64,000 nt of DNA. Origin: Patescibacteria group bacterium. Lineage in GTDB: Bacteria; Patescibacteriota; WWE3; UBA101185; 2-01-FULL-41-18. A model generated the notes under the pieces. The model searched no databases. It saw only the letters and a program-made list of their open reading frames with translations, and was not told the origin of the DNA. The DNA lies in contig JBBTST010000003.1 of the NCBI GenBank assembly GCA_038064575.1, positions 6,751 to 70,750 on the forward strand, in the 5' to 3' direction. Below are positions 16,720-62,156 of this stretch, piece by piece (within the stretch, counting starts at the first letter, position 1; each line of letters begins with the position of its first letter). Made by a program: the position numbers and the translations under genes.

Positions 16720-16721
16720 TG

Positions 16722-19761: not shown

Positions 19762-19838
19762 AAAGTCTCTCAAGAAGACGGTGGGGAGGTTCTGATGGCA
19801 AGAAACACGCCTTCAAAACCTCCTCTGCTTGACTTGTC

Positions 19839-19961
19839 TTAATCAGAGTCGTGCTTCTGGCTAATTTGACTACTTCTCATTGTAGCCACAAACACAAGTA
19901 GTGTTGACCCCAAAGTCAGGACCACCACCACAACAACAAGTAAAATCACTGTGGTATTCAT
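19839..19961 (-). CDS. 40-aa single-TM micropeptide
   Basis: Not in the ORF track. MNTTVILLVVVVVVLTLGSTLLVFVATMRSSQISQKHDSD, with strong GGAGG RBS 6 nt upstream. Confidence 0.25.
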   Translation of the reverse strand: MNTTVILLVVVVVVLTLGSTLLVFVATMRSSQISQKHDSD

Positions 19962-20121
19962 CTTTCCTCCTCATGGCTATGGCACGCTGTTATGTAGAGG
20001 CGGGGCTCTGTTTTTCCCTCTAGAAACTCACAAACCCTTTCTGATAAAGCTTTGGGCATTTCTTTGCCTCCTTTCCTTCAAGTTTTATCTGATTATCACA
20101 CTGGCTTCAATAATTAACAAA

Positions 20122-21543: not shown

Positions 21544-21636
21544 CTTTGCAATATATATGTTACATGGTAGCTCTTTTGATAAATGAAAGGGAAGAGGGTT
21601 TTTGGTTTTGGGTAGTTTTAACCTATAATAAAGTTA

Positions 21637-22530
21637 TTGGAGGTGTATATGTTACGTGTAGGCAAGCAAAATTCTTTAACCTATTCTCAAAACTTTCTTA
21701 AAAGCTCCAGGCTTGTTAAACATCTTTTGCAGGAGTCGGGAATTTTGCCAACCGATCTGGTAGTAGAAATAGGCGCAGGACATGGAGAAATTACACTGGA
21801 ACTGGCAAAGGTAGCCGGGAGGGTTATTGCCTATGAACCCGACCCCACCCTTTACACTTTTTTAAAAAAGGAACTTCAAAAGGATTCTAATGTAACTCTT
21901 ATACCAAAAGACTTCCTGAAAGCAAACCTTCCGGATAAGGAATATAAAGTTTTTGCAAATATTCCCTTTTCCAAGAGCGCTCAGATTATTGATAAGCTAA
22001 CCAATACAAAAAATCCGCCCGTTAGCTCCCACTTAATAATACAGCGTGAGGCGGCATACAAACTGTTGGGGCTACCAAAAGAAACCCAAGTATCCCTTCT
22101 TCTTAAGAACTTATTTGCTATGAAAATTAACTACGCTTTTAACTCCTCAGATTTTGAGCCTTCCCCCAAAGTAACAGCAGTAATGCTTGAGATTATTAAA
22201 AAGCACACGCCTGATGTTGAAGACAACAATACTTATCAGGATTTTATTTCTTTTGTTAAAAGCAGAGAAAACCCATCCCTTTCCAAAACATTAAGGACCG
22301 TTTTTACCAACATGCAAACCAAACTTATTGAAAAAGAGCTGAAGGGCATTACTAAAACCTCACAACTAAGTTATTCCCAATGGTTGTTTTTATTTAAAAC
22401 TTTTGAGCGTTATGAAGACGGTAAGCACAGCAGACAAATTAAAGGCTACTTTGGTAAATCAAAGCTTCAACAGGAGCATATTAAAAAGATTCACCGGACA
22501 AGGCTTGATAGTAATTGGTTTAGAGGCTGA
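21637..22530 (+). CDS. rRNA adenine N-6-methyltransferase, Erm/KsgA family
   Basis: N-terminal QNFL motif, SAM-binding VVEIGAGHGEITLEL, and catalytic motif IV variant NIPF. Confidence 0.7.
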   Translation: MEVYMLRVGKQNSLTYSQNFLKSSRLVKHLLQESGILPTDLVVEIGAGHGEITLELAKVAGRVIAYEPDPTLYTFLKKELQKDSNVTLIPKDFLKANLPDKEYKVFANIPFSKSAQIIDKLTNTKNPPVSSHLIIQREAAYKLLGLPKETQVSLLLKNLFAMKINYAFNSSDFEPSPKVTAVMLEIIKKHTPDVEDNNTYQDFISFVKSRENPSLSKTLRTVFTNMQTKLIEKELKGITKTSQLSYSQWLFLFKTFERYEDGKHSRQIKGYFGKSKLQQEHIKKIHRTRLDSNWFRG

Positions 22531-22622
22531 TAGAATGTGCGACTTTAGTTTCATATAGAAACAGGCAAGTCGCCAACCTTTGGGTGGATCTACTTATGGA
22601 ACCAGTAAAGGTCACTCTGGCA

Positions 22623-22892
22623 TTAATACTTTCTGAATAGCCAGATGAATAGAACCCCCAGACCCCATCCAAAAAGCATCACTCTCAAAAACAGCGCGAG
22701 AGCGAACAAGGTAGATCCTTCGTCGGGACTTGTTAAGTACACAATGGGTCCGAGTAGGATCCAGAGAACCAACAGTGGTTTTACCCACTTTAGCAAGCGC
22801 TCTCTCCTCAACCGATAACCCATGAGGTTTGCCATGCCCAAACCTACAACCAGCAAGATAGCTGGTAGAAAATCTTCCATCTTAACCTCCAA
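22623..22892 (-). CDS. small hydrophobic membrane protein (89 aa)
   Basis: Two or three TM helices. Locally higher GC than surroundings. Confidence 0.3.
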   Translation of the reverse strand: MEVKMEDFLPAILLVVGLGMANLMGYRLRRERLLKWVKPLLVLWILLGPIVYLTSPDEGSTLFALALFLRVMLFGWGLGVLFIWLFRKY

Positions 22893-22944
22893 CTTGTTGG
22901 TCTTGCCCCAAGTATTCCGGGTTCAACCAAACTCAACTGCCCTG

Positions 22945-23184
22945 CTAAGCGCTTTTCCACAAAGAAATTATGAGAAGTGCCAGCAGTAAAAAACCAAGCA
23001 CAGTGAGATATATCATCACCAGGGGGTTACCCATCAAAGCCTGCTGAACCAGCATGAGGAGTAAACCCAAAAGCGTGACTACTATAATCAGGCTCCCAAT
23101 GATTATTGTCAAAACTACCGGAATAAGCAGAACAAAGATCAAGCCCTGCACTAACCGGACTAAAGATGAGCTAATCTTGCCCAT
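22945..23184 (-). CDS. small hydrophobic membrane protein (79 aa)
   Basis: Two TM helices. Locally higher GC. Confidence 0.3.
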   Translation of the reverse strand: MGKISSSLVRLVQGLIFVLLIPVVLTIIIGSLIIVVTLLGLLLMLVQQALMGNPLVMIYLTVLGFLLLALLIISLWKSA

Positions 23185-23265
23185 TTATGCCTCCTAAGGA
23201 TAGTTATCCGAGTTTTCGTTATCTTATCAAAAAATATGAGAATTATCAATGCTATGGGATATATG

Positions 23266-23341
23266 TGGTGTGCCCGGAGGGACTTGAACCCCCGACTTTA
23301 GCGTCCGCAACGCTACGTTCTATCCGCTGAACTACGGGCAC
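23266..23341 (-). tRNA. tRNA-Arg (anticodon GCG as read)
   Basis: 76-nt cloverleaf with acceptor stem GTGCCCG/CGGGCAC, anticodon stem TAGCG/CGCTA, loop UUGCGGA, T-loop TTCAAGT, and encoded CCA. Confidence 0.75.
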
Positions 23342-23427
23342 AAACAAGCAAAAGCCAGGCAAATAACAATCAAGGTTTTCAGATGAAGTTTAACACAGAA
23401 GACTTATAAAATTCCTTTGCGGAGAGC

Positions 23428-24012
23428 TCACTCCAACGAAAGCTTAGAGGAAACTTTCTTGTACACTTTTTCTAGCATGGTTTCAGGTGGGGTTTCTCTC
23501 ATGGAGATGTTCTGGGACAAGATGTCCTTTATCTGATCGTAAGATACGCCGTCTAAGATCAACATCATTCTGCCTGGATAAGGCTCTTTTGTATCTATGT
23601 TAAGTATGTCAAAACCCGCATCCTTAGTGAAAAAGAAAAATTTGAAGTCATCCCAATAATACTGGCTCCCAAGGTAAAAAAGCCCGTAATTGTCTATCTC
23701 ATGTTTTACTTTTTCAGGGGGCACATTTGTTAAAACGTAGTACAAAACGCCAAGACTAAAAATGACTACAGCCAAAAGCGGAAGTCCAGCAAGCACCAAA
23801 ATAAGCGAGACTACAATAATCAAAGACCAAAGTCTTTTATAAAAAACAGGCGTTCTGGGCACAAAAGGCCTTAAAGGGGAAGACCAGGACAAAACAATAC
23901 TTCTAGAGGGCGGGACGGTCTTTCTGTCAAGAGCACGCCTGGAAGATTCCTTAACCGGAATATCTCTTGAGGGGGGGATAAAAGCGTTCAAAGTTGTTTT
24001 TAGTATATCCAT
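23428..24012 (-). CDS. membrane protein, hypothetical
   Basis: The track start 24075 overlaps the tRNA-Ser gene, so the internal Met (MDILKTT…) was taken. Two central TM helices. Confidence 0.4.
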   Translation of the reverse strand: MDILKTTLNAFIPPSRDIPVKESSRRALDRKTVPPSRSIVLSWSSPLRPFVPRTPVFYKRLWSLIIVVSLILVLAGLPLLAVVIFSLGVLYYVLTNVPPEKVKHEIDNYGLFYLGSQYYWDDFKFFFFTKDAGFDILNIDTKEPYPGRMMLILDGVSYDQIKDILSQNISMRETPPETMLEKVYKKVSSKLSLE

Positions 24013-24027
24013 AAATCTTAAACTCCT

Positions 24028-24115
24028 TGGCGGAGGGTACAGGATTCGAACCTGTGGCCGCATAAAATACGGCACGGCTTAGCAAGCCGTTGCATTACCG
24101 CTCTGCCAACCCTCC
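24028..24115 (-). tRNA. tRNA-Ser (anticodon GCU)
   Basis: Cloverleaf with acceptor stem GGAGGGT, anticodon stem ACGGC/GCCGT, loop UUGCUAA, long variable arm, T-arm GGTTCGAATCC, and encoded CCA. Confidence 0.85.
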
Positions 24116-24178: not shown

Positions 24179-24895
24179 CTATTTATTGTAAATAAAGTCA
24201 GAGGCTCTGGCCAAACTGAAGCACATAACAAATCGGGCCCCTGCAGCCTTCAATACCTTGGCACATTCTATAAAAGTTGCCCCGCTTGTGCAAAGATCAT
24301 CAACAAGGATAACATCTTGCCCTTTAAGCTTTGCTAAAAACGCTGAGGGCACTTCAAAGGCCCCACCAACATTGGCAAATCTGGCAGCTTTAGAAAGCTC
24401 CGATTGATACAAAGTTTTCTTTTTCCTAACAAGGAAGGGACAAAACTTATGCTCTGAAAGTGCTTTGGCTATAACATCAGCCGGGTTAAATCCTCTGGCA
24501 TGCAAGCGATCCTTGCTAGAAGGAACAGGGACAATCAGCGCATCTTGAGTGACAGCATTTTTTAAAAAACTACAAGCTGTTAAATCCAAAGCTATCTTTG
24601 TTAAAAGCTCAAGATTATAAAAGCTCATTTGCCCAAACTTTGAGGAAACAATTAACTTTTTAATTACGCCCTCATATAAAAAAGGGGAAAGCAGCTTTTC
24701 CGGAGTGAAAAAGGTCAAACAGCCAACATGAGTAAAACCGTTTTGACAAAAAGTATTACAAATCACACACCTTGGATGAAAATTAAAAGGCGCACTTTTA
24801 ATACAAACAGAACACAAAATGGTCCCCAGGCGCCCGCATGTCAAACACTTTGGAGGATATATAACATCAAGAAGAGTTGTAAACAGTTTATCCAC
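24179..24895 (-). CDS. comFC: ComF family protein (competence, phosphoribosyltransferase fold)
   Basis: N-terminal double zinc ribbon (CLTCG…CSVC…CVIC). C-terminal PRT motif VILVDDLCTSGAT. Confidence 0.75.
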   Translation of the reverse strand: MDKLFTTLLDVIYPPKCLTCGRLGTILCSVCIKSAPFNFHPRCVICNTFCQNGFTHVGCLTFFTPEKLLSPFLYEGVIKKLIVSSKFGQMSFYNLELLTKIALDLTACSFLKNAVTQDALIVPVPSSKDRLHARGFNPADVIAKALSEHKFCPFLVRKKKTLYQSELSKAARFANVGGAFEVPSAFLAKLKGQDVILVDDLCTSGATFIECAKVLKAAGARFVMCFSLARASDFIYNK

Positions 24896-25032
24896 AAACT
24901 TTGGGAGGTTGTCCTAGCGGCTTTAAGCTAACACATATCCTATAATAGCGGCATCATTAAATCTTATAGTATTATACTGTTTTTTAAAACTTTTTAAAGA
25001 CTCAAAATCTATTAAATGTTAGAATTTGCCTT

Positions 25033-25725
25033 ATGGATCAGAAGAAAGGCGCTTTTTTAGACATAGATCAAACTCTCTACAACGGTTATCTTTTTTACGA
25101 ATGGGCTAAGCAGCTTGAATCTCAGGACGTATTTTCTGTCCTTGATATTGTCAAAATGGATGAGCCTCTCATTCTTTATAAGATTGGGCATTACTCCTAC
25201 ATTGAAGCTGCAACCAAAGTGTCCGAGTGCATTGCAGACATGTTAGTTGGCAAAGAGGTTGATGAGGTTATTGCTGCCACCCAAAGTTTCACACAAAAGA
25301 TTGGCAACAAGTTTTATGAATATGCAAAACCTCTTACTGAAAAGCTTAAAGACAGCGGGTTTTTAATAGTGCTTGTTACAAATGAGCCCGACTTTCTTGC
25401 TGAAATGATCAAAGACATCCTTGGCGCACATGATGCACTAGGACTTGACTTCACAATTAAGAGAAATAAATTTGCCGGTCCGGCTATAAATGATCTGGCA
25501 ACAGAACACGCAAAAGAGGCTATAGTTAGAAAATATGCTCAAGATTCTGGGATAGATCTAAATGTATCGCTTGCAATGGGGGATGCTGAATCAGACGTAG
25601 AAATGCTAAAAGCCTGCGGAAAGGGCTTTTTGATCAATACTTCTGCCAAAATGCAAAAACACACTGAGGGAACCAATATAATTTCAATAAGTAGGGAAGA
25701 AGTTCTTAGTAAAGTTTTTTGTTAA
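25033..25725 (+). CDS. HAD-superfamily hydrolase, subfamily IB-like
   Basis: Motif I DIDQT (DxDxT) near the N-terminus. Motif IV GDAESD. Confidence 0.6.
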   Translation: MDQKKGAFLDIDQTLYNGYLFYEWAKQLESQDVFSVLDIVKMDEPLILYKIGHYSYIEAATKVSECIADMLVGKEVDEVIAATQSFTQKIGNKFYEYAKPLTEKLKDSGFLIVLVTNEPDFLAEMIKDILGAHDALGLDFTIKRNKFAGPAINDLATEHAKEAIVRKYAQDSGIDLNVSLAMGDAESDVEMLKACGKGFLINTSAKMQKHTEGTNIISISREEVLSKVFC

Positions 25726-50655: not shown

Positions 50656-53328
50656 ATGCCCTTAAAAGAAACTAGCGGACTATCTAATAAACAACACGCA
50701 GTACCACAAAACATAATGCAGGTGGAGTTCAAGATAATAGGGGACTTGACCATGCGCCAGTTCTTTTACCTGCTTATTGCAGCTATTTTTGCCTTTGGAG
50801 CTATCAAAAGTGGGCTTCCTTCCTATGTTGCCTGGCCCCTTGGCATTGTGGCAGCCCTTGCCGGCGTAGCCATAGCTTTTGTCCCTATTCAAGATAGAGG
50901 AATGGATCAATGGGTAGCTTTTTTCTTCCAGGCAATTTACCAACCAACCCTGAGGGTCTGGAGAAAAGAAACACTTATCCCACAATATTTTCTATATCAA
51001 AGCGCGGCATTGCTTAAATCTGAAATGTTAACAATAGCCCCAACGGCAAGCAGAAGAAAACTGGAGGAGTATCTTGAAAGAGCTTCTGGCGATCTTAAGA
51101 AAAAAGATTATCTTGATGAAAAAGAAGAGGAGTATATCAAAAAAGTAAGGGCTGCTTTTGAACCCTCTTTAGCTAATGCTAGACCCACTACACCTCAAAC
51201 CATACTTAACACTCAAGCAACAGCCGTTACGGCACCACCCCAAGTAACAACTCAATTCAGACCACAAAGTTTACCTCAGACACACCCAAGCGTTAGAAGC
51301 ATCCCTATTACGCCCACTATAGCACCCTCACCTAAAATACCTATATACCAGGCACCTAAGTTCACACCACCTTCACCACAACCCTCTATCCCACAGGCTC
51401 CCAAACCTCAAGAGGTTAATAAAGCTTCAGGGGCTCAGGAGAAAGTAGCACAACAGCCTCAGCAGCAGAGCGTGCCTCAAGCTAGTCAAAAACCACCCTC
51501 ACCAAAAGTGCAAACCCCTGAAGTCTTAAAGCTTCCGGATGTTAAAAAGGAGGAAGTAAAAATAATAACTCCAAAAACTTTAGACGCTTTAACCGTTTCA
51601 ACCCCCCCGCAAACTTTTGTTAAACCCCCTGTTCAGATGCAAACGCAGCAGCAACCACAACCTAAACAAGTTGTGGCCAAACCATTCGAACCCCCACAAG
51701 TTATAGAACCAAAAGTAATAGAAGTAGCAAAAGAAGTTGGGAGGGAAGAAGCTCCTATCTTTGTGGATATAACTCCCAAGAGTGAGGAAAAACCGGAAGT
51801 GGTGGAAAACATAATTGAGCAGGATAAGGCAAACCTTGTCAGGACAGAACTCGCACCCGGTAAAGAATCCACACCCAAAGAGCCCCCAGCACCAGCGCTA
51901 GCACCCGCACCCGCACCGTTCACGTCTGGCCCACTAACTCAAGAAAAAGCGTCTCTAACACAGTCTGAAACCGTTGCAATCCCAGCTAAAGAACCAATTC
52001 AGGAACCAAAAGTTCAGGAACAAAAAAAAGAGGAGCCCCATGAACAGGAGCAGGAACAGGAACAAGAAAGAGCGGAAATAATCAAGCCTTCAAGATCCCA
52101 GCTGAGGCAAAACTTTCCAATTACAGCAAGAATTGGTTCTTTTAAACCAAAGTCTCAGGGCACCACCTTAACCCCTGCCGGCATTACAGGCAGAAGATTT
52201 ACAAACCTGACTCCAACCCAGGGTGAGATTGTTTTACCAATCAGAGGAGAAAGAATTTTAAGAATGTCAGGCGAGCCCGAACCTCCTAAAAGCCAGGAAG
52301 ACATGAAAAGAAAGGAAAAATTAGACCAACTCAACGCTTTGGTTGAAAAACTGAAAGTAGATCAAAAAAGCAGTGCTTCCCAGGCAAGACTTTCAATACC
52401 CCCGCTTAATATATCTGCTCTGACACAGCAAGATCAAAAGAAAGAAGAAAAAATAGAGGTTGGGAACCCGTTTAAAGAAGTGGCTGTTACAGAAGTAGAA
52501 AAGAAAACTGCAGAGGGAGTAGGAGTACCTGCTCAACAAACCCCCCCGCAAACCTCTCAAACACCAAAAAAAGGCAGCATGTACCTGCCGCCGGAAAGAC
52601 TTATGTGGACAGGTCCGGAACCAACAGCTTCTCTCAAAAAAGAGGTTCCAAAAGATGAAAAAGTTGAAATAAAATATGATATCCCCGGCAAAAAAGCAAC
52701 AGATGAAGAAATAGAAAAGCACCTGATTGAAGCAGATTCCAAACTAACTAAGGAGATTGAAGCGCTAAACATGAGCATGAAAGATTCGTCAAAAACGGAG
52801 GCTGAAAGAAAAGCCATCCAGGATCAAATAAAACGTGTAGAAACGGAAAGAGTTGAAGCGCAAAAAGTGATAACAGGCCTTGAAACCAAAGTTAAAGAGC
52901 TTGAACAAAAACTCACAGAAACCACCTCTCCACAAGTTGTTGTTCAAAAAGTGGTGGAAAAAGTACAAGTACCTGTAATTCATGACAGCAAAGAAGATAC
53001 GCAACTCAAACAGCCTAAGGCTCCAGTGCTAGCCAAAGTTCCTACAATAACAACTCTGCCTAATTCAATAAACGGGGTTGTAAAAGACAACAACGGCAAA
53101 CTTGTGGAAGGCGCAGTAGTTATGATTAAAGATCCAAGAGGAGACGTTGTCAGAGCGCTAAGAACCAACAAACTGGGCCAATTCTTCATCACAACTGCAG
53201 TAGCAAACGGTAGTTACATAGTTGAGGTTTCATTTGAGAAAGATAATATTGCCTTAAACTTTGATTCTTCCCTGATACAAACCAAAGGAGAGGTATTACC
53301 TCCAATTGAATTTACTGGTAAGATTTGA
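50656..53328 (+). CDS. VirB3/PrgI-like two-TM N-domain fused to Pro/Gln-rich linker, coiled-coil and C-terminal CarboxypepD_reg-like domain
   Basis: N-terminal 110 aa with two TM helices (MRQFFYLLIAAIFAFGAI…VAWPLGIVAALAGVAIAF). Roughly 400-aa P/Q/A-rich low-complexity region. C-terminal beta-sandwich motif (GVVKDNNGKLVEGAVVMIKDPRGD…). Confidence 0.45.
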   Translation: MPLKETSGLSNKQHAVPQNIMQVEFKIIGDLTMRQFFYLLIAAIFAFGAIKSGLPSYVAWPLGIVAALAGVAIAFVPIQDRGMDQWVAFFFQAIYQPTLRVWRKETLIPQYFLYQSAALLKSEMLTIAPTASRRKLEEYLERASGDLKKKDYLDEKEEEYIKKVRAAFEPSLANARPTTPQTILNTQATAVTAPPQVTTQFRPQSLPQTHPSVRSIPITPTIAPSPKIPIYQAPKFTPPSPQPSIPQAPKPQEVNKASGAQEKVAQQPQQQSVPQASQKPPSPKVQTPEVLKLPDVKKEEVKIITPKTLDALTVSTPPQTFVKPPVQMQTQQQPQPKQVVAKPFEPPQVIEPKVIEVAKEVGREEAPIFVDITPKSEEKPEVVENIIEQDKANLVRTELAPGKESTPKEPPAPALAPAPAPFTSGPLTQEKASLTQSETVAIPAKEPIQEPKVQEQKKEEPHEQEQEQEQERAEIIKPSRSQLRQNFPITARIGSFKPKSQGTTLTPAGITGRRFTNLTPTQGEIVLPIRGERILRMSGEPEPPKSQEDMKRKEKLDQLNALVEKLKVDQKSSASQARLSIPPLNISALTQQDQKKEEKIEVGNPFKEVAVTEVEKKTAEGVGVPAQQTPPQTSQTPKKGSMYLPPERLMWTGPEPTASLKKEVPKDEKVEIKYDIPGKKATDEEIEKHLIEADSKLTKEIEALNMSMKDSSKTEAERKAIQDQIKRVETERVEAQKVITGLETKVKELEQKLTETTSPQVVVQKVVEKVQVPVIHDSKEDTQLKQPKAPVLAKVPTITTLPNSINGVVKDNNGKLVEGAVVMIKDPRGDVVRALRTNKLGQFFITTAVANGSYIVEVSFEKDNIALNFDSSLIQTKGEVLPPIEFTGKI

Positions 53329-53335
53329 GTAATCT

Positions 53336-54037
53336 ATGGAAGACATTAAATTCACAACACAAGAGCATCTTGATATTGAGACCATAACAAACGACCTTGT
53401 AGTTTTGAAAAACGGTGCTGCAGTCCTTATTATCAGAACCAATGCCGTAAATTTTGATCTGTTATCTGAGATTGAACAGGATGCAATTATTGCAGCTTTT
53501 TCAGGCCTTCTAAACTCTCTAAACTTTCCGGTTCAGATAATTGTCAGAAGCAAAAAGCTAGACATTACCAATTATCTTGAAAAAGTTAAGGCTATAGAAA
53601 ACAGAATCAAGGACCCTCTTCTTAAAGTTCAGGCGGAGGCCTACAGAAAATTTGTGCAGGAGCTAATCAAAAGAAATGAGGTTTTGGATAAGAGTTTCTA
53701 TGTGTCCATTCCTTCGGGAGGCACAGCTTCTACACCAACAGGCAGTCCTTTTGACTTCCTCTCAGCGCTAACGGGTACAAAAAAAGCCACCAAAAGAGTG
53801 AATGTTGACGTGCCAAAACTGCTTAAAACGGCAACAAATGAACTTTACCCCAAAAGAGACACTCTAACTAGGGAGTTTGCAAGGATTAACATTAAAGCAA
53901 AACAATTAACAACTCAGGAGCTAGTGGAACTGTTTTTTGATATTTATAATCCGGTTTCCCTGCATGATCAAAGAATGAGAACAAACGCGGATGATTACAG
54001 AATTCCAATAGTAGAACCTGCAATACTTGAAGAGTAG
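53336..54037 (+). CDS. hypothetical cytoplasmic protein co-transcribed with VirB4
   Basis: 233 aa with no TM. Lies 18 nt upstream of virB4. Confidence 0.4.
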   Translation: MEDIKFTTQEHLDIETITNDLVVLKNGAAVLIIRTNAVNFDLLSEIEQDAIIAAFSGLLNSLNFPVQIIVRSKKLDITNYLEKVKAIENRIKDPLLKVQAEAYRKFVQELIKRNEVLDKSFYVSIPSGGTASTPTGSPFDFLSALTGTKKATKRVNVDVPKLLKTATNELYPKRDTLTREFARINIKAKQLTTQELVELFFDIYNPVSLHDQRMRTNADDYRIPIVEPAILEE

Positions 54038-54054
54038 ATTTAAGTTTAACAAAG

Positions 54055-56199
54055 ATGAAATTACCATTTGGCAACAAAAAAAAACAAGCACAACAACTCC
54101 ATGAAATGACCGCCGCAGAAAAGCTTTCTCAGGGCATGGTCTCAATAAGAGACATTATTGCCCCCTCAGCTATTGAAATAGATTTTTCTTATATTAGGAT
54201 TGGAAACACATATTATAGAACTTTATTTATTTCAGGCTACCCCAGATTTGTTGGGGCGGACTGGCTTTCTCCTCTTATTAATTTTGATAAGACTCTTGAT
54301 ATTGCAATGTTTTATTATCCCGTCCAATCCAAGGGCATTCTTGATGATCTCAGAAGAAAGATTGCGGAAATGGAGGCCACAATAAAGGCTGATACAGAAA
54401 AAGGCAAAGTTGTAGACCCTGCCGTTACGGCAGCCTTAGAAGATGCTCGCTCCTTACAGGAGCAACTGGTGAAAGGCATAGAACGCTTTTTTCAATTTTC
54501 CTTTTATATCACAATTCCTGCAGAAACTTTGGAAGAGCTTGAGACCATCACAAAAAAGGTTGAGTCCACTCTTGGGGCCCTGCTTTTAATTTCTAAACAA
54601 GCCTCTCTTCAAATGGAACAGGGCTTTCAGTCCACCATACCAACCTGCCTGGACAAGCTTCTTGTAACAAGAAATATGGACACAACAAGTATTGCCACAA
54701 CCTTCCCGTTTACTTCCTCTGACCTTACTTCAAATGAGGGAATAATGTATGGAGTAAATATGCACAACGGGTCCCTAATAATTTTTGATAGGTTTTCTTT
54801 GGAAAACGCTAACATGGTAGTCTTTGCAAAAGCAGGAGCCGGAAAATCTTTTTTTGTAAAACTTGAGGCACTTAGATCTTTGGTTTTTGGAGCGGAGATT
54901 ATAGTAATTGATCCTGAAGAGGAGTACAGAAGATTAAGTGATGCTGTTGGCGGTAATTACATAGCATTCTCACCCTCCTCCCCTTCAAGAATTAATCCGT
55001 TTGACCTTTCTGGAATTGCGGTGGAGGGGGAGAACGAGCTCGGTCAAAAAATCCTCTCCCTACACACCCTTTTTAAAATAATTTTTGGTTCCCTAACAAG
55101 CACTGAGGAGTCTGTGTTAGATAAAGCCTTGATAGAAACATATAGAATTAAGGGCATTACAACGGAACCAACCACCCAAAGAGACAAAGAGCCACCCATA
55201 ATGGAAGATTTATATAAAGTGCTGCTTGGCACTGAAGAACCGGAAGCCAAATCTTTATCCGGAAGACTGGAAAGATACATAAAAGGCTCCTTGGCCGGAA
55301 TTTTTGACCAAAAATCAAACATAGATTTAACCGGAAGATTTACAGTATTTTCCACAAAAAGCCTTGAAGATGTGTTAAGACCTCTTGCCATTTACATTCT
55401 GCTTGATTTTATCTGGACAAGAATCAAAAGAGATCTTAAAAAAAGAATCCTCATTGTTGATGAGGCCTGGTACCTGATGCAAAACAAAGACTCAGCAACT
55501 TTTATGTTTGGCATTGCAAAAAGATGCAGAAAATACTATCTGGGGCTTACCACAATAACACAGGACGTACAGGACTTTTTATCAAGTGAGTACGGCACCG
55601 CAATCATTACAAACTCTTCCATTCAAGTTCTTCTTAAACAACACCCGGCAGCAATAGACAGACTCGCTGAAGTTTTTTATCTTTCTGAGGGGGAAAAGAG
55701 GCTTTTGCTTTCAGCAGGTGTTGGGGAGGGGCTCTTTTTTGCGGGGAGTAATCACGTAGCAATGAAGGTGGAGGCTTCTGATGAGGAGCACAAACTTATA
55801 ACCACCAATCCGCAAGAGTTATTAAGGCTCAGGGAGAAAGGCACGCTCAAGGCAGATACTGGACCCTCCAAGAATATCTACAAACCAACACCAAGCTTTG
55901 ATAACAAACCAAAACAGGCAACAGTTGGAACAACGGGGTTGCCATCGGTCAACAATCCCAATATCAGCTCAATAAAACCTCCTCAGCCCGGTCTGGCACA
56001 GCCTCAAGCCGGAGATACTTCCCCAAACCAGGGGGCAGGCTTGGCTCTTCCTGATGATCCTTACATTCCTACTAAATCAACTAAGATTGAGGTCCCCGAA
56101 GTAGACACCAGCAGTCCCGCGCCAAAATTTGGTCAAACAGAAAATCCGGAGCAAAAACAGCCGGAAGACAGTGATGAAAAAGTAACAGAAATATTTTAG
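54055..56199 (+). CDS. virB4: VirB4/TrbE/TraC-family type IV secretion ATPase
   Basis: Walker A FAKAGAGKSFF and Walker B/DEAW motif ILIVDEAWYLM. 714 aa. Acidic C-terminal tail. Confidence 0.85.
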   Translation: MKLPFGNKKKQAQQLHEMTAAEKLSQGMVSIRDIIAPSAIEIDFSYIRIGNTYYRTLFISGYPRFVGADWLSPLINFDKTLDIAMFYYPVQSKGILDDLRRKIAEMEATIKADTEKGKVVDPAVTAALEDARSLQEQLVKGIERFFQFSFYITIPAETLEELETITKKVESTLGALLLISKQASLQMEQGFQSTIPTCLDKLLVTRNMDTTSIATTFPFTSSDLTSNEGIMYGVNMHNGSLIIFDRFSLENANMVVFAKAGAGKSFFVKLEALRSLVFGAEIIVIDPEEEYRRLSDAVGGNYIAFSPSSPSRINPFDLSGIAVEGENELGQKILSLHTLFKIIFGSLTSTEESVLDKALIETYRIKGITTEPTTQRDKEPPIMEDLYKVLLGTEEPEAKSLSGRLERYIKGSLAGIFDQKSNIDLTGRFTVFSTKSLEDVLRPLAIYILLDFIWTRIKRDLKKRILIVDEAWYLMQNKDSATFMFGIAKRCRKYYLGLTTITQDVQDFLSSEYGTAIITNSSIQVLLKQHPAAIDRLAEVFYLSEGEKRLLLSAGVGEGLFFAGSNHVAMKVEASDEEHKLITTNPQELLRLREKGTLKADTGPSKNIYKPTPSFDNKPKQATVGTTGLPSVNNPNISSIKPPQPGLAQPQAGDTSPNQGAGLALPDDPYIPTKSTKIEVPEVDTSSPAPKFGQTENPEQKQPEDSDEKVTEIF

Positions 56200-56217: not shown

Positions 56218-57351
56218 TTAATACTGCAAAGGCATTATCAGATAAGTATGGTTATCCCTGCCAACAGGCTTTAAAACTCCGGGCATTCCGGGACCTATTT
56301 TATCAGAGCAGGAAAACACAAAACCATCCGCTTTAATGTTTGACAGGGCATCAAGTATATATTTTGAATTAAAAGCAACTTCAATATCTCCACCGTCAAT
56401 TTTTGCATCAACACTACTCCTGTTTTCCCCAGCCTCAGTGCTTGAAGAGGATATATACAAAACCCCATCTTCTCCGCTTACTTTAAATTTGACCACACTT
56501 GTTGCATTTTCTTTGGCAAAAACATTTGCAAGTCTTAAGCCATTGGTAAAATCCTTAGTTAACATCTCTACTCTAATATTTGTTAGGGCAGGATCCGGAA
56601 TGAGTTTTTTGTATTCGGGAAAAGCCCCATCCAAAAGTCTTGAGGAAATCAGCAGATCTGAAGATTTAAAAACAGCAAGATTTCCGTCTTTATTTAAGGA
56701 GATTTCTAAAGGCTCCTTGAGAGAGCTAACCAACCTGGCAACTTCCAGTATGATTTTTGCAGGTATGATAGCAGAAAAGTTTTCTTTCACCGTTTCGTTT
56801 TCTGCAAGCTCAACAACCCTCTCCGCTAGTCTAAACCCATCAACTCCTACCATAAAAAGCTTGCCCCCTTCTGAATAAACAAGGATACCTGTAAGAACGG
56901 GTCTTCCCTCATCCATGGCTGCAGCAAAAGCAACCTCAGACACCACCTCACTAAAAATCTTGGGATCCATAGTCAAATGCACCTCATCCGGAGTATCCGG
57001 AAGGGAAGGAAATTCAGAGGCATCAAGCCCATTAAATTTGGAAGAGGCTTTGTCACACATAATTTTCAAAGAAAAATCATCAGATTCACCACTTACTGTC
57101 TGTGGGGGAAGATTAGAAATAAACTCTGAAAGCAGTCTTGCCGGTATCGTAACACTTCCTTCTTCTTCAACAGAAGCACCAATCCAAGTAGTAATAGAAG
57201 TTTCAAGATTGGTAGCTGAAAGCTTAAGTCTGCCGCCCTCTGTTGAAAGTAATACGTTAGATAAAACGGGCATGGGACCTTTATTGGAAACAGCTTTAGA
57301 AACTGTTGTCAGGGCACGGGACAAGTTTTCTTGAAGACAGGTAAATTTCAT
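56218..57351 (-). CDS. dnaN: DNA polymerase III beta sliding clamp
   Basis: 377 aa, canonical N-terminus (MKFTCLQENLSRAL…PVLSNVLL) and three-domain length. Confidence 0.9.
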   Translation of the reverse strand: MKFTCLQENLSRALTTVSKAVSNKGPMPVLSNVLLSTEGGRLKLSATNLETSITTWIGASVEEEGSVTIPARLLSEFISNLPPQTVSGESDDFSLKIMCDKASSKFNGLDASEFPSLPDTPDEVHLTMDPKIFSEVVSEVAFAAAMDEGRPVLTGILVYSEGGKLFMVGVDGFRLAERVVELAENETVKENFSAIIPAKIILEVARLVSSLKEPLEISLNKDGNLAVFKSSDLLISSRLLDGAFPEYKKLIPDPALTNIRVEMLTKDFTNGLRLANVFAKENATSVVKFKVSGEDGVLYISSSSTEAGENRSSVDAKIDGGDIEVAFNSKYILDALSNIKADGFVFSCSDKIGPGMPGVLKPVGRDNHTYLIMPLQY

Positions 57352-57386
57352 GTTTTCTAAAAGGATTAACTACCAATCCTTTAACT

Positions 57387-57848
57387 TTATTCTTTAGGTT
57401 TTATTACAACTCTTCTACTAAAACCATCTCCAATACTATCTGACGCAATTCCCTCATATTTGGAGGCTTCCAAATGAACAATACGCCTTTCATAAGAAAC
57501 CATTGGGGAAAGTTCTACAGGCTTTAAGGTAAATTTGACTCTATCAACAGCCTTTTTAACTATGTCTTTAATCTTTTCTTCTCTTTCCCTCTTGTAACCG
57601 TTGACATCAACAGAAAGATGCACCCATTTATCAGCTTTTTTGAGAATCATTAAACCAAGAATTGTCTGGAGAGAAGAAAGACCTTCTCCATGATACCCAA
57701 TCACAACCCCAAGGTCATCGCCGGAAAGGGAAACATGAAAACTATCCTCCTCAGTAATATTTTTAAAAACATCTACGGCAGCAACAACTCCAATAAAATA
57801 AAGAATTTTTTCTATCGTTTCTACAATTAATTTTTCTAAATCTGACAT
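57387..57848 (-). CDS. jag: Jag/KhpB-like RNA-binding protein (KH + R3H)
   Basis: R3H-like segment ERRIVHLEA and KH-like GVVIGYHGEGL. Conserved position downstream of yidC. Confidence 0.65.
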   Translation of the reverse strand: MSDLEKLIVETIEKILYFIGVVAAVDVFKNITEEDSFHVSLSGDDLGVVIGYHGEGLSSLQTILGLMILKKADKWVHLSVDVNGYKREREEKIKDIVKKAVDRVKFTLKPVELSPMVSYERRIVHLEASKYEGIASDSIGDGFSRRVVIKPKE

Positions 57849-57849
57849 A

Positions 57850-58638
57850 TCAAACTTTCAAGCCAATTTTTCTTGCAAGAGGTGCAAGACCACCAAGCCC
57901 ACTCACATAATATTGCTGAACTATAGAAAACAGAGTCGTTACTAAAATGTTTAAAACCACTCCGGAGGGCAGATTCAACCCCACAATCAAAAAGACTATA
58001 GGCATGGTATAAAGCATTTGCTCCTGCATATTATACATAACATCATCTGTTGAGTCACTGGTCTTTTTAGCTATTTCTTCTTCTTTTTTTACGTCAGGCA
58101 TCATCATTTTAGAGGTTAAAAATTGAAACAAGGCAGCCAATACCGGAAGAATAAAAAGCGGGTCTTTCTTTGCCAAATCCAAATACAAAAAATTTGAGTT
58201 TATTTTGTGGTTTTCTGGAATTCTCAAAAAATCAGAGTAAAGTCGTGGGTTTAAATCGCCAGAAGAAATGGCGTGTGTTCCAGTTGTAAGATTTATTACT
58301 GAGAAAAGCGCAAAGATTACAAGAATAGGAAAGATTTGGGTCAAACAGCCGGAAGCCGGATTAATCCCAAGAGTCTTGTAAAGCGCCATTTGTTTTTCAG
58401 CAAGCACTTTTTTATCATGTCCATACTTCTTTTTAAGCTTATCAAGCTCAGGCATTATTTCTTTTTGTTTCTGTGCAAGTTTTAAAGAGGAGTGCATGAA
58501 AGGGGCTGATAAGCCCTTAACCAAGAGGGAAAGCGCAATAATAGCCACTCCCAAATTTCCACCAAGCACTCTATAAAAAAAGAGCAAAATATTAAGAAGT
58601 GGCGTTACAAGCACCAAATTCCAAATTGTTGAAATCAT
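57850..58638 (-). CDS. yidC: membrane protein insertase YidC (short form)
   Basis: 262 aa, 5-TM YidC/Oxa1 core. Adjacent to yidD/rnpA. Confidence 0.85.
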   Translation of the reverse strand: MISTIWNLVLVTPLLNILLFFYRVLGGNLGVAIIALSLLVKGLSAPFMHSSLKLAQKQKEIMPELDKLKKKYGHDKKVLAEKQMALYKTLGINPASGCLTQIFPILVIFALFSVINLTTGTHAISSGDLNPRLYSDFLRIPENHKINSNFLYLDLAKKDPLFILPVLAALFQFLTSKMMMPDVKKEEEIAKKTSDSTDDVMYNMQEQMLYTMPIVFLIVGLNLPSGVVLNILVTTLFSIVQQYYVSGLGGLAPLARKIGLKV

Positions 58639-58641
58639 AAA

Positions 58642-58884
58642 TTATAGGAGAGGGCCTGCTGCGTGTTTTGAGAGGGGATTACAGCAAGCAACCCTTTTAG
58701 CTCCTTTCAGTAACCCTGCTAAGATACCATACTTTTCTACCGCCTGATAGGTATACTCAGAACAAGTAGGAACGTGTCTACAAACCCTGAAAGTAAACTG
58801 AGGCAAAAGAAGTCTCACCAGTCCTGTATCAAAGGAAAGATATTTCTGATAAAACTTTATTAATTTGAGAACTAATTTCTTCAT
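58642..58884 (-). CDS. yidD: membrane protein insertion efficiency factor YidD
   Basis: Motif CRHVPTCSEY matches the YidD signature CRFxPTCSxY. Overlaps the rnpA 3' end. Confidence 0.8.
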   Translation of the reverse strand: MKKLVLKLIKFYQKYLSFDTGLVRLLLPQFTFRVCRHVPTCSEYTYQAVEKYGILAGLLKGAKRVACCNPLSKHAAGPLL

Positions 58885-59176
58885 ATGTAGCAGTTAACCC
58901 TTTAAATCGGATGATAAAAATATAATAATAACCTGCCTTAAAACCACCCAAAAGCTTATAAACTATATCAGAAAAGACTCTTTTTAGCTTATGTCTAACT
59001 ACAGCTCTTTTGTCAATCTTGTTTGACACAATGAAACCTATTTTTGGTTTTGCGGAAGGATTCTTAATATTCCTCATCACAGACAGCACAAAAAAGGGTG
59101 TGGAACAGCTCTTCCCATACTTTTTGGCTTTCTCGTAATAATATTTATCTGTTAACCGATTATCCGGCGGAAGCAT
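58829..59176 (-). CDS. rnpA: ribonuclease P protein component
   Basis: 115 aa basic protein with RNR-like motif (KRAVVRHKLKR). Located between rpmH and yidD. Confidence 0.75.
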   Translation of the reverse strand: MLPPDNRLTDKYYYEKAKKYGKSCSTPFFVLSVMRNIKNPSAKPKIGFIVSNKIDKRAVVRHKLKRVFSDIVYKLLGGFKAGYYYIFIIRFKGLTATYEEISSQINKVLSEISFL

Positions 59177-59185
59177 GTAATAAGC

Positions 59186-59338
59186 TTACTTTGATTTTTT
59201 TGCAACCACAACTCTAACTCTTCCTTTTTGTTTTCTTCTTTTAATTATGTTTCTACCGCCCGGGGTTGAATTTCTGGCCATGAACCCATGTTTTCTGATT
59301 CTTTTTCTCTTTTTAGGCTGATATGTTCTTTTTGGCAT
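59186..59338 (-). CDS. rpmH: 50S ribosomal protein L34
   Basis: Hand-translated: [50 protein letters not shown]. 50 aa. Not in the ORF track. Confidence 0.85.
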
Positions 59339-59513
59339 AACCAGGCTATATTAAACGATCCTCCTACCCCAGTCAATGCGTTGCTGCGCTAGACAGATAC
59401 CCTATAGTGTGATATGATGCACCAATCCTTAGAAACAAGTGTAAAAAGTGTTTTAGACCTGCAAACACACGTTAATCAGGCTTTATTTTTAGCTAACCTA
59501 AAGAAGGACTAAG

Positions 59514-60434
59514 ATGGATAAACTAAAAATTGGTGTTTTAACAGTAATACTGGCTCTTGTATTAACCCCGTTAAAGGCGTGGGCATGGAAGGCTAGTGGG
59601 TCTGCCAAATCTTCCTGCGTTTTGGAAAAAGCCGTTATCAAAGTGTCCTTCTCAAACACAGAATTAAACGGGGAACAAAATGTAATGAATGTGATAGCTA
59701 AAGACTTAGCTTCAACCAAGACCGTTGCTCTTGGCAGCATAGCTCCCGGACAAACAAAAAATGGAGAAATAAAGCTTGATACTTCTAGCACTTCTGCAAA
59801 TTCTGTTCTTTTTGAGCTTTCCTGGATAAACGGCAGAGAAGGAAAAGATAAACGCTTTGCAAACTACTCTTCTGTTGACTGTAAAGCTACTGAAGAGCCC
59901 AATGAGGAACCCAAAGAACCTAAAGAAGAGAAATCAAAAAATGAGAAAGCAGAGCTTAAAGTCAAAAAGATGGTAAAGCTTGACGGTACTAAAGACTATA
60001 AAGAAAACCTCTCAAATGTTTCAGTTGGAGACACGCTTGTTTTTAAGATAGATGTTAAAAATACAGGAGAAAAAGATGTAGTTGATATTGAAGTATTTGA
60101 TGAACTACCTATTGAATTCAAAGTTCTTGACGGAGAGCTTATAAAAGAGCTTGAAAGACTGCCTGACAATCAAAAGTTCAGCTATACCATAAGAGTAAAA
60201 GTAAAAGAGACGGGAAAAGTTTTAAGTAACGATTGCGTAGAAAACAAAGTAAAAGCAAAGGCGGATATTAATGGAAACGGTAGCAGAGAAAAGCTGTCTT
60301 CAGACACAGTCAAAGTGTGTTTTTCCGGAAGTCTTAAGAGGCTTCCAAAAACAGGAACTGAAAGTTTACTTATAGGAAGCCTCATAGGCCTAAGCCTCCT
60401 TACACTGGGCAAACTGCTACAAACAAGGCTTTAA
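59514..60434 (+). CDS. LPXTG cell-wall-anchored surface protein with DUF11-like repeat domain
   Basis: Signal peptide. C-terminal LPKTG, then a hydrophobic stretch and a basic tail (QTRL). Confidence 0.7.
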   Translation: MDKLKIGVLTVILALVLTPLKAWAWKASGSAKSSCVLEKAVIKVSFSNTELNGEQNVMNVIAKDLASTKTVALGSIAPGQTKNGEIKLDTSSTSANSVLFELSWINGREGKDKRFANYSSVDCKATEEPNEEPKEPKEEKSKNEKAELKVKKMVKLDGTKDYKENLSNVSVGDTLVFKIDVKNTGEKDVVDIEVFDELPIEFKVLDGELIKELERLPDNQKFSYTIRVKVKETGKVLSNDCVENKVKAKADINGNGSREKLSSDTVKVCFSGSLKRLPKTGTESLLIGSLIGLSLLTLGKLLQTRL

Positions 60435-60489
60435 CACACATCCCCAAAACTCCTAAAGAGTCACACAAAAGCTTTACTTTAAAAAACCA

Positions 60490-60508
60490 TTGACATTATT
60501 GTGGATAA
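60490..60508 (+). promoter_or_regulatory. putative dnaA promoter (TTGACA -35) with overlapping perfect DnaA box
   Basis: TTGACA at 60490-60495. Perfect box TGTGGATAA (TTATCCACA reversed) at 60500-60508. TTAAAT lies 17 nt after the -35. Confidence 0.5.
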
Positions 60509-60555
60509 CTTTTTAAATTGTGTGAGATTTGCAAAACTTCTGCCCCACAGTAACT

Positions 60556-61911
60556 ATGAATAACCTCGATCTTTTTAAAGCTGCAATGGGAGAACTGGAA
60601 ACAACGCTGTCAGGAGCGGTGTTCAAAACTTTTTTTTCCACTCTTTCTTTTGGCAAGGCGGAAGGAAGAAAAATGGAGATAGTCGCTCCAAGCGACTACG
60701 TAGCAGACCAAATAAATAAACGCTTTCTAATATTTTTAAAAAACAGCATTGATAGACTTGGAAAGGAAAGCATTGACATAACTTTTAGAGTGGAAAAAAA
60801 AGAAGTTCAAACAATCACAGAAGGCTTGCCACTTTTCACAAGTGTGGAAAAAGTTAAACAGACGGATTCCACAAATAATACCCAGCTTTCTCAAAAATAC
60901 ACATTTGAAACGTTTATAGTAGGCCCTAGTAATAGGCTTGCGCATGCTATAGCAACAACTGTTGCTGAAAATCCGGGCAAAATGTACAATCCGTTTTTCT
61001 TATATGCTGGCGTGGGACTTGGAAAAACCCATCTAATCCAAGCAATAGGAAACAGAATTCTTAAAAACCAACCAAAAGCAAAAGTAGTCTATGCAACGGC
61101 CGAGTCGTTTATGAACGAACTTATTGAAACTATTCAGGAAGGCAGAAATAAAAATTACACCGCAAATAAATTTAGAGATAAGTTTAGAAAGGCTGATTTA
61201 CTTTTGATTGATGATATTCAATTCATTGCAGGCAGGGGAGAGGCAACCCAAGAGGAGTTTTTCCACACCTTCAATGCCCTTTATATGTCACAAAAACAGA
61301 TTGTTCTGACCTCAGACAGACCCCCAAAAGAATTAAATAAATTAGACGCAAGAATCACTTCAAGATTTGCAAGCGGTGTAGTTGCGGATATGCAAAACCC
61401 GGACAGTGAAACAAGAGCTGCAATACTAAGAGAAAAAAGAAATGTGCTCAAAGAAGAAATACCCAATGAAGTTGTAGATTTCATAGCAATAAACTTTGAG
61501 TCAAATATCAGAGAGCTTGAAGGCATGTTTTTACAAATAGTTACAGGGGCAAAAGCTGAAGGAGTACAAATAACCAAAGAATATGCAGCAAAGATCATAG
61601 GGCATGTTTTAAAAGAGCCTCCAAAAGTAAATATAAATGACATCCTAAAAACGGTATGCACTTACTACAATATCAAAATCACTGATTTAAAGGGCAAAAG
61701 CAGGGTGAAAGAATTTGTAGTTCCAAGGCAAATCTCAATGTACTTATTAAAGGATTTAACTCAAACACCCTTCATGGTTATTGGAGACATTTTAGGTGGA
61801 AGAGACCATACCACCATTATGCACGGCAATCAAAAGATAGAAAACAATCTTAAGGAAAACCCAAAAATAAAACAAGACGTTTTAAATATAAAAAGGGCAA
61901 TGAGACTTTAA
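60556..61911 (+). CDS. dnaA: chromosomal replication initiator DnaA
   Basis: AAA+ Walker A GVGLGKTHL, Walker B LLLIDDIQF, C-terminal DNA-binding domain. Start taken at MNNLDLFK, since the track start is upstream in-frame. Confidence 0.92.
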   Translation: MNNLDLFKAAMGELETTLSGAVFKTFFSTLSFGKAEGRKMEIVAPSDYVADQINKRFLIFLKNSIDRLGKESIDITFRVEKKEVQTITEGLPLFTSVEKVKQTDSTNNTQLSQKYTFETFIVGPSNRLAHAIATTVAENPGKMYNPFFLYAGVGLGKTHLIQAIGNRILKNQPKAKVVYATAESFMNELIETIQEGRNKNYTANKFRDKFRKADLLLIDDIQFIAGRGEATQEEFFHTFNALYMSQKQIVLTSDRPPKELNKLDARITSRFASGVVADMQNPDSETRAAILREKRNVLKEEIPNEVVDFIAINFESNIRELEGMFLQIVTGAKAEGVQITKEYAAKIIGHVLKEPPKVNINDILKTVCTYYNIKITDLKGKSRVKEFVVPRQISMYLLKDLTQTPFMVIGDILGGRDHTTIMHGNQKIENNLKENPKIKQDVLNIKRAMRL

Positions 61912-62156
61912 AGGATGTGGATAAAGAGCCTCTTTTATCCACAAAGATATACACAGCCTTTTGGGAGTTTTGCACACAAAAAAAGGCTTGGTAGAGGGCT
62001 TGTTCGGGTTTATTTTTAGGCAGGTACAACAAAAACACATCTATAAACAGGAAGCATCATTGAGGTAGGTACTGATACAACTAAAACTGCCCGAAAGTCA
62101 CATATGCACAACACCTATTGTAAGTACTGCTTAGTTTATATATATGCTTTATAGTT
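61912..62156. promoter_or_regulatory. putative oriC core: inverted perfect DnaA boxes plus AT-rich unwinding region
   Basis: TGTGGATAA at 61916-61924 and TTATCCACA at 61935-61943. Degenerate boxes follow. AT-rich stretch GTTTATATATATGCTTTATAGTTATG at the 3' end. Confidence 0.55.

Follow-up and report, generated by a model that had tools for sequence, protein, structure and literature searches.

A jag-dnaN gene order and a predicted dnaA-adjacent replication origin in bacteria of the WWE3 lineage

In the canonical bacterial origins rpmH diverges from dnaA and dnaN follows dnaA on the same strand, as in the incC region of Bacillus subtilis. Helicobacter pylori is organised differently: its dnaA is uncoupled from dnaN, and an unrelated gene lies beyond the origin elements. 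As a rule dnaA serves as the indicator gene of an origin, a criterion applied in Ori-Finder 2022 (PMC10225481). Conservation of the context of oriC is not strict, and origin function does not require the rnpA-rpmH-dnaA-dnaN cluster (PMC4285127). Unwinding modules of the type termed BUS are predicted in most bacterial origins; by the published rule a DnaA box with at most two mismatches, optionally joined by a second one with at most four, lies within 16 bp of an unbroken run of three or more trios whose middle base on the bound strand is A (NTN on the top strand) (PMC8287927). For several classes of Patescibacteria the gene clusters described in PMC12102498, as far as its dnaA, dnaN and origin passages go, have type IV secretion genes near dnaA, dnaN, rnpA or rpmH. 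Here we describe the dnaA region of a stretch of 64,000 nucleotides from a Patescibacteria contig (JBBTST010000003.1), referred to as the window. In this region dnaN is found behind jag, on the strand opposite to dnaA and 3.2 kb upstream of it, so that the canonical dnaA-dnaN adjacency is missing. We consider it likely that the following holds as a whole: the window comes from a Hainich groundwater bacterium of WWE3 (Katanobacteria, Patescibacteria) and carries the replication-origin region of its chromosome, the origin is situated in the spacer between dnaA and a wzy gene, and the gene order goes back to a single inversion.

The 245-bp dnaA-wzy spacer is the best candidate for oriC and is predicted from its motifs to be a continuous origin of the DnaA type. 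The gene order is best explained by one old, small inversion, which would have been inherited by all WWE3 genomes sampled. The genes and sites of the region are as follows.

50656-56199, plus strand: type IV secretion-like cluster (prgI, traC-like, virB4), with the virB4-like gene as its last gene
54055-56199, plus strand: virB4-like ATPase gene (Pfam P-loop_TraG, AAA_10, CagE_TrbE_VirB)
56218-57351, minus strand: dnaN, beta sliding clamp (Pfam DNA_pol3_beta domains 1-3), last gene of the rpmH-led cluster
57352-57386, minus strand: jag-dnaN spacer of 35 bp, presumed inversion junction 1
57387-57848, minus strand: jag/khpB, RNA-binding protein (Pfam R3H and KH_KhpA-B)
57850-58638, minus strand: yidC, short membrane insertase (Pfam 60KD_IMP, E = 1.8e-39)
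58642-58884, minus strand: yidD (Pfam YidD)
58829-59176, minus strand: rnpA, RNase P protein (Pfam Ribonuclease_P)
59186-59338, minus strand: rpmH, ribosomal protein L34 (Pfam Ribosomal_L34), first gene of the cluster
59376-59348, minus strand: promoter-like site of rpmH, TTGACT-17-TAATAT (promoter scan)
59514-60434, plus strand: gene for a DUF11-domain surface protein of 306 amino acids (Pfam DUF11), between rpmH and dnaA
60490-60519, plus strand: promoter-like site of dnaA, TTGACA-18-TAAATT, with a perfect DnaA box (60500-60508, minus strand) in its 18-nt spacer
60556-61911, plus strand: dnaA, 451 amino acids (Pfam Bac_DnaA and Bac_DnaA_C)
61912-62156, plus strand: predicted oriC, 245 bp, beginning 1 nt after the dnaA stop codon
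62157-63461, plus strand: wzy, Wzy_C-family (O-antigen-ligase-like) membrane protein gene (Pfam Wzy_C)

A preliminary description of the locus had named dnaN, jag, yidC, yidD, rnpA, rpmH, dnaA and a membrane protein gene, and these identities and positions were borne out by the open reading frame listing together with Pfam; the DUF11 gene was absent from it. The rpmH-rnpA-yidD-yidC-jag genes diverge from dnaA as in canonical loci, with the DUF11 gene inserted between the two groups. An NCBI entry "DNA polymerase III subunit beta" of a Patescibacteria group bacterium has the same sequence as DnaN of the window (100% identity), and the closest named homologues of both DnaN and DnaA belong to candidate division WWE3 and the Patescibacteria group. 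The DnaA start (ATG at 60556) agrees with the deposited protein (exact match, P0121). From rpmH to dnaN the intergenic gaps amount to 9, -56, 3, 1 and 35 nt, the negative value representing the overlap of yidD with the 3′ end of rnpA (58829-58884, minus strand). The dnaN gene is probably co-transcribed with the tightly packed rpmH cluster and would no longer stand behind the presumably DnaA-regulated dnaA promoter.

For comparing gene orders a DnaN-alignment scan with one genome per species was applied, which yielded 80 loci (designated by L numbers); these were annotated by tblastn with the proteins of the window. The order rpmH-rnpA-yidD-yidC-jag-dnaN on one strand is present in 35 of 35 WWE3-type loci including the window. 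Within this set, which contains the closed genome CP006914.1 (RAAC2_WWE3_1, L026) and the 1.11-Mb contig JBMORU010000001.1, the fetched loci share 39-62% DnaN identity with the window. In a neighbour-joining tree of DnaN the 35 WWE3-type loci group together, apart from three Microgenomates-like and 47 Chloroflexota loci. Hence the rearranged gene order pointed out in the preliminary description is a property of all WWE3-type loci compared. The jag-dnaN spacer measures roughly 5 to 90 bp across these loci, which is compatible with co-transcription, an rnpA/yidD overlap of about 50 nt is kept in nearly all of them, and a convergent virB4/traC-like/prgI cluster usually comes next after dnaN.

On the other side of the locus, dnaA is followed by wzy or by murT-gatD-wzy, then by an SBP gene and usually by tsaD, in nine of ten distinct WWE3 loci that bear dnaA; the exception is L034, in which the rpmH cluster follows oriC after dnaA. 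The canonical order wzy(-) jag(-) yidC(-) yidD(-) rnpA(-) rpmH(-) dnaA(+) dnaN(+) is found in the three Microgenomates-like loci (L050, L080, L085), which are the nearest Patescibacteria loci outside WWE3; the same secretion cluster lies there a few kb beyond dnaN. If the strand of dnaN is taken as plus, the order in WWE3 reads wzy(-) [oriC] dnaA(-) rpmH(+) ... jag(+) dnaN(+) virB4(-). The wzy homologues, located behind dnaA in WWE3 loci and behind jag in the canonical relatives, share 28-41% identity.

These orders can be connected by one step. From an ancestral Microgenomates-like order wzy<-jag<-yidC<-yidD<-rnpA<-rpmH dnaA->oriC->dnaN, one inversion of a block of roughly 4 kb comprising jag to rpmH, dnaA and oriC, with one breakpoint separating wzy from jag and the other the unwinding element from dnaN, would have produced wzy<-oriC<-dnaA rpmH->rnpA->yidD->yidC->jag->dnaN. 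Such a block inversion yields both new adjacencies (dnaA/oriC-wzy and jag-dnaN) in the right orientations and leaves the outer flanks unchanged; wzy would mark the unchanged left-hand flank and the virB4-like gene the unchanged right-hand one, and wzy would have taken the place of dnaN downstream of dnaA/oriC. The rearrangement is therefore best described as an inversion of the block from rpmH to jag with dnaA and oriC, rather than as a movement of dnaN.

Several changes within sub-lineages would have followed. The slot between rpmH and dnaA holds the DUF11 gene in the window, a DUF4349 gene in L098 and an open reading frame of 125 amino acids in L099, and contains no gene in L012 and L093. 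This site next to the origin appears to vary in what is inserted, and later gene insertions may have taken place there. In L013, L067, L091 and L093 murT-gatD lies between oriC and wzy and may have been inserted there later, and a local flip of dnaA-oriC could account for L034. Finally, dnaA-oriC would have parted entirely from the rpmH..dnaN block in some lineages. Indeed, the two are wholly apart in the RAAC2-like lineage (L091), and in GCA_964636285.1 they are found on different contigs (L097 and L011), so the divergent layout of rpmH cluster and dnaA was lost in some WWE3 lineages. In the closed chromosome of RAAC2_WWE3_1 (CP006914.1) DnaA is P147_WWE3C00001G0698 (AHB40609), annotated as hypothetical protein, and DnaN (AHB40717) comes 108 protein accessions after it, that is roughly 108 genes as judged from accession order and not from coordinates. 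As DnaA is gene 0698, the deposited sequence does not start at dnaA.

The origin could be placed as proposed here and the order still have arisen through several independent moves, for instance by transposition of dnaN alone to a position behind jag, or by insertion of rpmH..jag between oriC and dnaN in an L034-like arrangement followed by a flip of dnaA. Three observations speak for such a course and weigh against a single inversion. In L034, a basal branch of the DnaN tree, dnaA and rpmH have the same orientation, with dnaA-oriC-rpmH..jag-dnaN all on one strand. Most of the deeper WWE3 lineages carry murT-gatD between oriC and wzy, which demands one extra event. Furthermore, no SBP or tsaD gene was found beyond wzy in the canonical loci, so wzy is the sole gene that testifies to a conserved flank on that side; the inversion model depends on three outgroup loci and on wzy orthology at 28-31% identity. 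Against a series of moves, one inversion accounts at once for both new adjacencies and their orientations with the outer flanks (wzy and the type IV secretion cluster) unchanged, the order of L034 is two inversions away from the canonical state with the standard WWE3 order as the one-step intermediate, and murT-gatD is absent from this site in the clade of the window, as it is in the outgroup. We therefore regard the multi-step course as unlikely and retain the single inversion.

Separation of dnaA from dnaN appears to be the rule in the Chloroflexota lineages as well, where no dnaA was detected within 10 kb of dnaN in 47 of 47 loci fetched (L035-L090); thus such a separation is not rare in itself.

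The location of the origin was assessed from the DnaA boxes of the window. Perfect boxes (TTATCCACA) occur five times in the 64 kb compared with 0.58 expected, and none of 100 shuffled sequences reached five. Three of the five flank dnaA, at the very places given in the preliminary description: 60500-60508 (minus strand), 61916-61924 (minus strand) and 61935-61943 (plus strand). Its statement that the upstream box overlaps the TTGACA hexamer has to be corrected, since the hexamer occupies 60490-60495 and the box begins 4 nt after it. The predicted oriC, which directly adjoins dnaA, contains the following elements.

61916-61924, minus strand: R1, perfect box TGTGGATAA
61935-61943, plus strand: R2, perfect box TTATCCACA
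61947-61955: R3, oriC box ATATACACA
61968-61976: R4, oriC box TTTTGCACA
62003-62009: TTCGGGT block
62042-62049: weak box TATAAACA
62094-62102: weak box AAAGTCACA, four mismatches, overlapping the terminal box by 1 nt
62102-62110: terminal box ATATGCACA, two mismatches
62102-62156, plus strand: BUS-like unwinding module, consisting of the terminal box, a spacer, trio-like repeats and an AT-rich element
62111-62114: spacer of the module, ACAC
62115-62132: trio-like repeats CTA TTG TAA GTA CTG CTT
62133-62156: AT-rich element AGTTTATATATATGCTTTATAGTT, 83% A+T

Five boxes with at most two mismatches (two perfect ones and three with two mismatches) lie in the 245-bp spacer, where 0.94 would be expected (Poisson P = 0.003), and the highest weighted DnaA-box score in 64 kb was obtained for 250-bp windows covering 61.7-62.15 kb. 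In distinct WWE3 loci bearing dnaA the spacer downstream of dnaA measures 245-345 bp, which is long for compact genomes; L034 was left out of this range, as the end of its spacer could not be delimited and a default stretch of 400 nt was taken. The layout of the boxes is conserved. Right after the dnaA stop codon a head-to-head pair spaced exactly 19 nt from start to start is present in the window and in L012, L013, L091, L093, L097, L098 and L099, followed by two boxes of the same orientation 12 and 21 nt further on, the weak TATAAACA box and the terminal double box. R2 and the terminal box are 167-168 bp apart in six loci; in two more the interval is 175-177 bp. The TTCGGGT block at 62003-62009 is invariant in the window and the four loci most closely related to it (L012, L097, L098 and L099) and absent from more distant WWE3 origins.

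The end of the spacer next to wzy shows the features of an unwinding module. A DnaA box, a spacer of 1-11 nt (3-4 nt in all loci but L091 and L093), an array of triplets with central T led by CTA, and an AT-rich tract were found in 13 of 13 loci, including the dnaA-dnaN spacers of L050, L080 and L085. Anchored on the terminal box, 61 of 78 triplets over these loci have a central T, the background frequency of T being 0.26; the arrays of all 13 begin with CTA, and the sequence beyond the array has 67-95% A+T. The canonical relatives have TTATCCACA-AGA-CTA CTA CAA CTA CTA followed by AT-rich sequence in their dnaA-dnaN spacer, and this array matches CTA TTG TAA GTA CTG of the window. Since the module corresponds to that of the canonical dnaA-dnaN spacers, the WWE3 dnaA-wzy spacer is the likely counterpart of the ancestral dnaA-dnaN origin. 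According to this, the origin would have moved together with dnaA, and the breakpoint would lie between the unwinding element and dnaN.

The module also follows the BUS rule, with two mismatches in ATATGCACA, four in AAAGTCACA, and five of six triplets in the CTA frame reading NTN after the 4-nt spacer. The longest unbroken NTN run is three (GTA CTG CTT, after a spacer of 13 nt). The AT-rich stretch noticed in the preliminary description is genuine, the 83% A+T of 62133-62156 comparing with 60.5% for the window; it lies at the edge of the spacer and is the predicted unwinding site. From the motif layout DnaA would bind the head-to-head perfect pair and the phased row of weaker boxes of the same orientation, would oligomerise on single-stranded DNA at the CTA-type trios 4 nt past the last box, and the duplex would open at 62133-62156 beside the wzy start codon.

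Upstream of dnaA there is one perfect box, located in the spacer of the promoter-like site (promoter-like sites overall were no more numerous in the scan than in shuffled sequences). Of the 13 distinct loci compared, 12 have a single perfect box at a distance of 47-162 nt on the upstream side of dnaA, and L080 has one with one mismatch in that position; the box remains with dnaA where rpmH lies elsewhere. It is probably a site of dnaA autoregulation and not a second half of the origin; binding there may cause autorepression.

Compositional skew was analysed over the window and its extension, about 72 kb of chromosome. Cumulative GC skew drops to a minimum at 59.5 kb (trough at 58-64 kb) and then climbs from 64 to 68 kb. 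Raw short-range skew around dnaA or rpmH in 23 loci tracked gene strand and was uninformative alone; therefore a strand-corrected measure was used, in which GC skew at third codon positions was averaged over plus- and minus-strand genes. This measure is -0.059 to the left of the spacer, consistently in both halves of the window, and +0.040 to the right of it, over only 10 kb. It shifts in the same direction in L093 and L091 (marginally in L091). Gene-strand bias is not diagnostic, being weak: to the left of the spacer the minus strand carries 59% of the coding sequence. The skew over 72 kb is thus compatible with an origin at about 62 kb but not decisive. Taken together, the conserved module of box, trios and AT-rich element, its match to the canonical dnaA-dnaN spacers and the sign change of the strand-corrected skew support the view of the preliminary description that this is an origin region.

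A number of points weigh against placing the origin in the dnaA-wzy spacer. The box cluster is small (two perfect boxes and three with two mismatches). The trios of the window are degenerate, CTA alone fitting the consensus, and the formal BUS rule is permissive; the module carries weight because it is conserved across the 13 loci. The raw cumulative minimum lies 2.4 kb away at the divergence of rpmH and the DUF11 gene, only 72 kb were covered, and over such a distance GC skew is mainly a reflection of gene strand. The close relative L097 has no skew change at dnaA, and L091 has none in raw skew. In addition, the head-to-head pair folds as an RNA hairpin after the dnaA stop codon (-18 kcal/mol, z = -2.4), so it could double as, or be merely, a structure of the transcript end. 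As an intrinsic terminator the pair was rejected, having no match in the terminator scan, no U-tract and a modest fold.

If the boxes served only dnaA regulation or transcript termination, the true origin would lie in the divergent region between rpmH and dnaA or far off. Escherichia coli has its oriC distant from dnaA. The variable oriC context emphasised in reviews (PMC4285127) would allow for this, and so would the raw skew minimum at 59.5 kb, the hairpin directly after the dnaA stop codon and the lack of a raw skew switch at dnaA in L091, L097 and L013. The rpmH-dnaA region, however, contains one box only, is interrupted by different genes in different relatives, and its box stays with dnaA when rpmH is elsewhere; loci with rpmH..dnaN but without dnaA show no skew switch at rpmH. 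The stem of the box pair retains the DnaA-box sequence across lineages without co-varying, while its loop varies, and it has neither a U-tract nor a terminator-scan match, which argues against mere termination. The downstream spacer combines box phasing over 167-168 bp with a module matching the dnaA-dnaN spacer of the relatives. Given this conserved module, an origin elsewhere is less likely than one in the dnaA-wzy spacer, and we give it a small chance, slightly below that of the multi-step course. A chimeric join from assembly or binning that put dnaN behind jag, the artefact which the preliminary description had named beforehand as the finding that would overturn its view, is excluded for practical purposes: nothing was found in its favour, exact look-ups of DnaA and DnaN returned contigs of the same population that show the identical arrangement and stem from no fewer than five independent samples or assemblies (Hainich groundwater; ENA ERZ1292633, ERZ1292619 and ERZ1292630, Logan ERR3858121, ERR3858136, ERR3858137 and ERR3858138), so that the same junctions occur in ENA and Logan assemblies of different sequencing runs, and the jag-dnaN junction recurs in about 35 further WWE3 genomes obtained in unrelated studies, among them a closed chromosome and a contig of 1.11 Mb.

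Several further features of the window were recorded. The jag-dnaN spacer contains a hairpin with an 8-bp stem, AAAGGATT-N7-AATCCTTT (57360-57382, minus strand). It fails the terminator scan, being too AT-rich, and may serve as a site of processing or attenuation between the two genes. The genes yidD and rpmH are both missing from the public gene calls for the contig. The stop codons of dnaN and the convergent virB4-like gene are 18 bp apart, and the PrgI-domain protein of the secretion-like cluster has 890 amino acids. The DUF11 protein ends in an LPKTG motif and a hydrophobic tail, a sortase-type sorting signal as judged from the translation. The two perfect DnaA boxes away from dnaA are located at 24888-24896 and 562-570, both on the plus strand. 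The former is in the 400 bp that separate a phosphoribosyltransferase-domain gene (24179-24628, minus strand) from a HAD hydrolase gene (25033-25725, plus strand) and possibly belongs to a DnaA-regulated promoter, or occurs there by chance. An Rfam scan of the window gave nothing in the origin region; its matches were tRNAs and tmRNA alone, namely four tRNA genes (three Ser, one Arg) at 15148-24115, all on the minus strand, and a tmRNA at 32602-32991 (minus strand) with the tag VDNEYVDAPALVGAFV.

Taken one step further, an inversion at the edge of the unwinding element may define the whole WWE3 class and may have moved dnaN permanently from a DnaA-autoregulated dnaA-dnaN unit into the rpmH-rnpA-yidD-yidC-jag operon; this combined claim is put forward tentatively, and we would sooner expect part of it to fail than all of it to hold. 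If it were true, the supply of sliding clamp in these reduced genomes would be tied to the expression of ribosome, RNase P and membrane insertase and not to initiator levels, and dnaA-oriC and dnaN, once uncoupled, would be free to drift up to 108 genes apart. For WWE3, a class with a closed genome, the locus also allows oriC to be predicted at sequence level together with an explicit unwinding module, which would be useful for rotating and closing genomes, for growth-rate estimates by iRep/PTR in groundwater metagenomes and for future vector design. The adjacency of jag and dnaN, found in all WWE3 genomes sampled, is a simple marker at the level of gene order. Furthermore, WWE3 provides a natural example of a dnaA-oriC link that outlasts a rearrangement which the dnaA-dnaN link does not survive, in agreement with the conserved gene cluster itself being unneeded for origin function. 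The understanding of replication initiation is not changed by the WWE3 order.

In the literature on replication of WWE3/Katanobacteria we found no account of the jag-dnaN order, of an inversion or of a WWE3 oriC, and the origin is not discussed in the paper on the closed RAAC2 WWE3 genome. In PMC12102498 the term WWE3 is absent from the main text, and its passages on dnaA, dnaN and the origin give neither an inverted order nor an oriC location. The locus resembles the clusters treated in those passages in that a prgI/traC-like/virB4 cluster abuts dnaN in the window and usually in WWE3 loci.

Compared with the canonical origins of the rpmH/dnaA-dnaN type (the B. subtilis incC region; L050, L080 and L085), the locus has the same genes, with rpmH divergent from dnaA. 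The predicted oriC is likewise situated directly downstream of dnaA in the same orientation as dnaA, and its layout of box, short spacer, CTA-type trio and AT-rich sequence is the same (PMC8287927, PMC4285127). Unlike in these origins, dnaN is found on the other side, on the opposite strand and at the end of the rpmH cluster, and a Wzy-like gene stands in its place. B. subtilis has a bipartite origin, whereas only one box is present upstream of dnaA here, so the WWE3 origin looks continuous. As in the BUS described by Richardson, Pelliciari and Murray (PMC8287927), a box with at most two mismatches and a weaker box overlapping it by 1 nt are followed, after a spacer of at most 16 bp, by at least three NTN trios (3′-NAN-5′ on the bottom strand) led by CTA, with AT-rich sequence beyond. 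The trios of the window are degenerate by comparison, and their third triplet (xAA) departs from NTN, an irregularity shared by seven of 13 loci including the canonical L080 and L085. The oriC1-dnaA-oriC2 region of H. pylori (PMC8235120, PMC4285127) is similar in that a DnaA-box cluster and an unwinding element adjoin dnaA. In contrast to the situation in WWE3, its origin is bipartite, while in WWE3 dnaN has a fixed new partner, jag, and the change can be traced to one local inversion. Likewise, dnaA is uncoupled from dnaN in the 47 loci fetched from Chloroflexota. The WWE3 arrangement is thus a variant, specific to its lineage, of a system that is well known; in other respects the origin is an ordinary one of the DnaA type and holds no mechanistic surprise.

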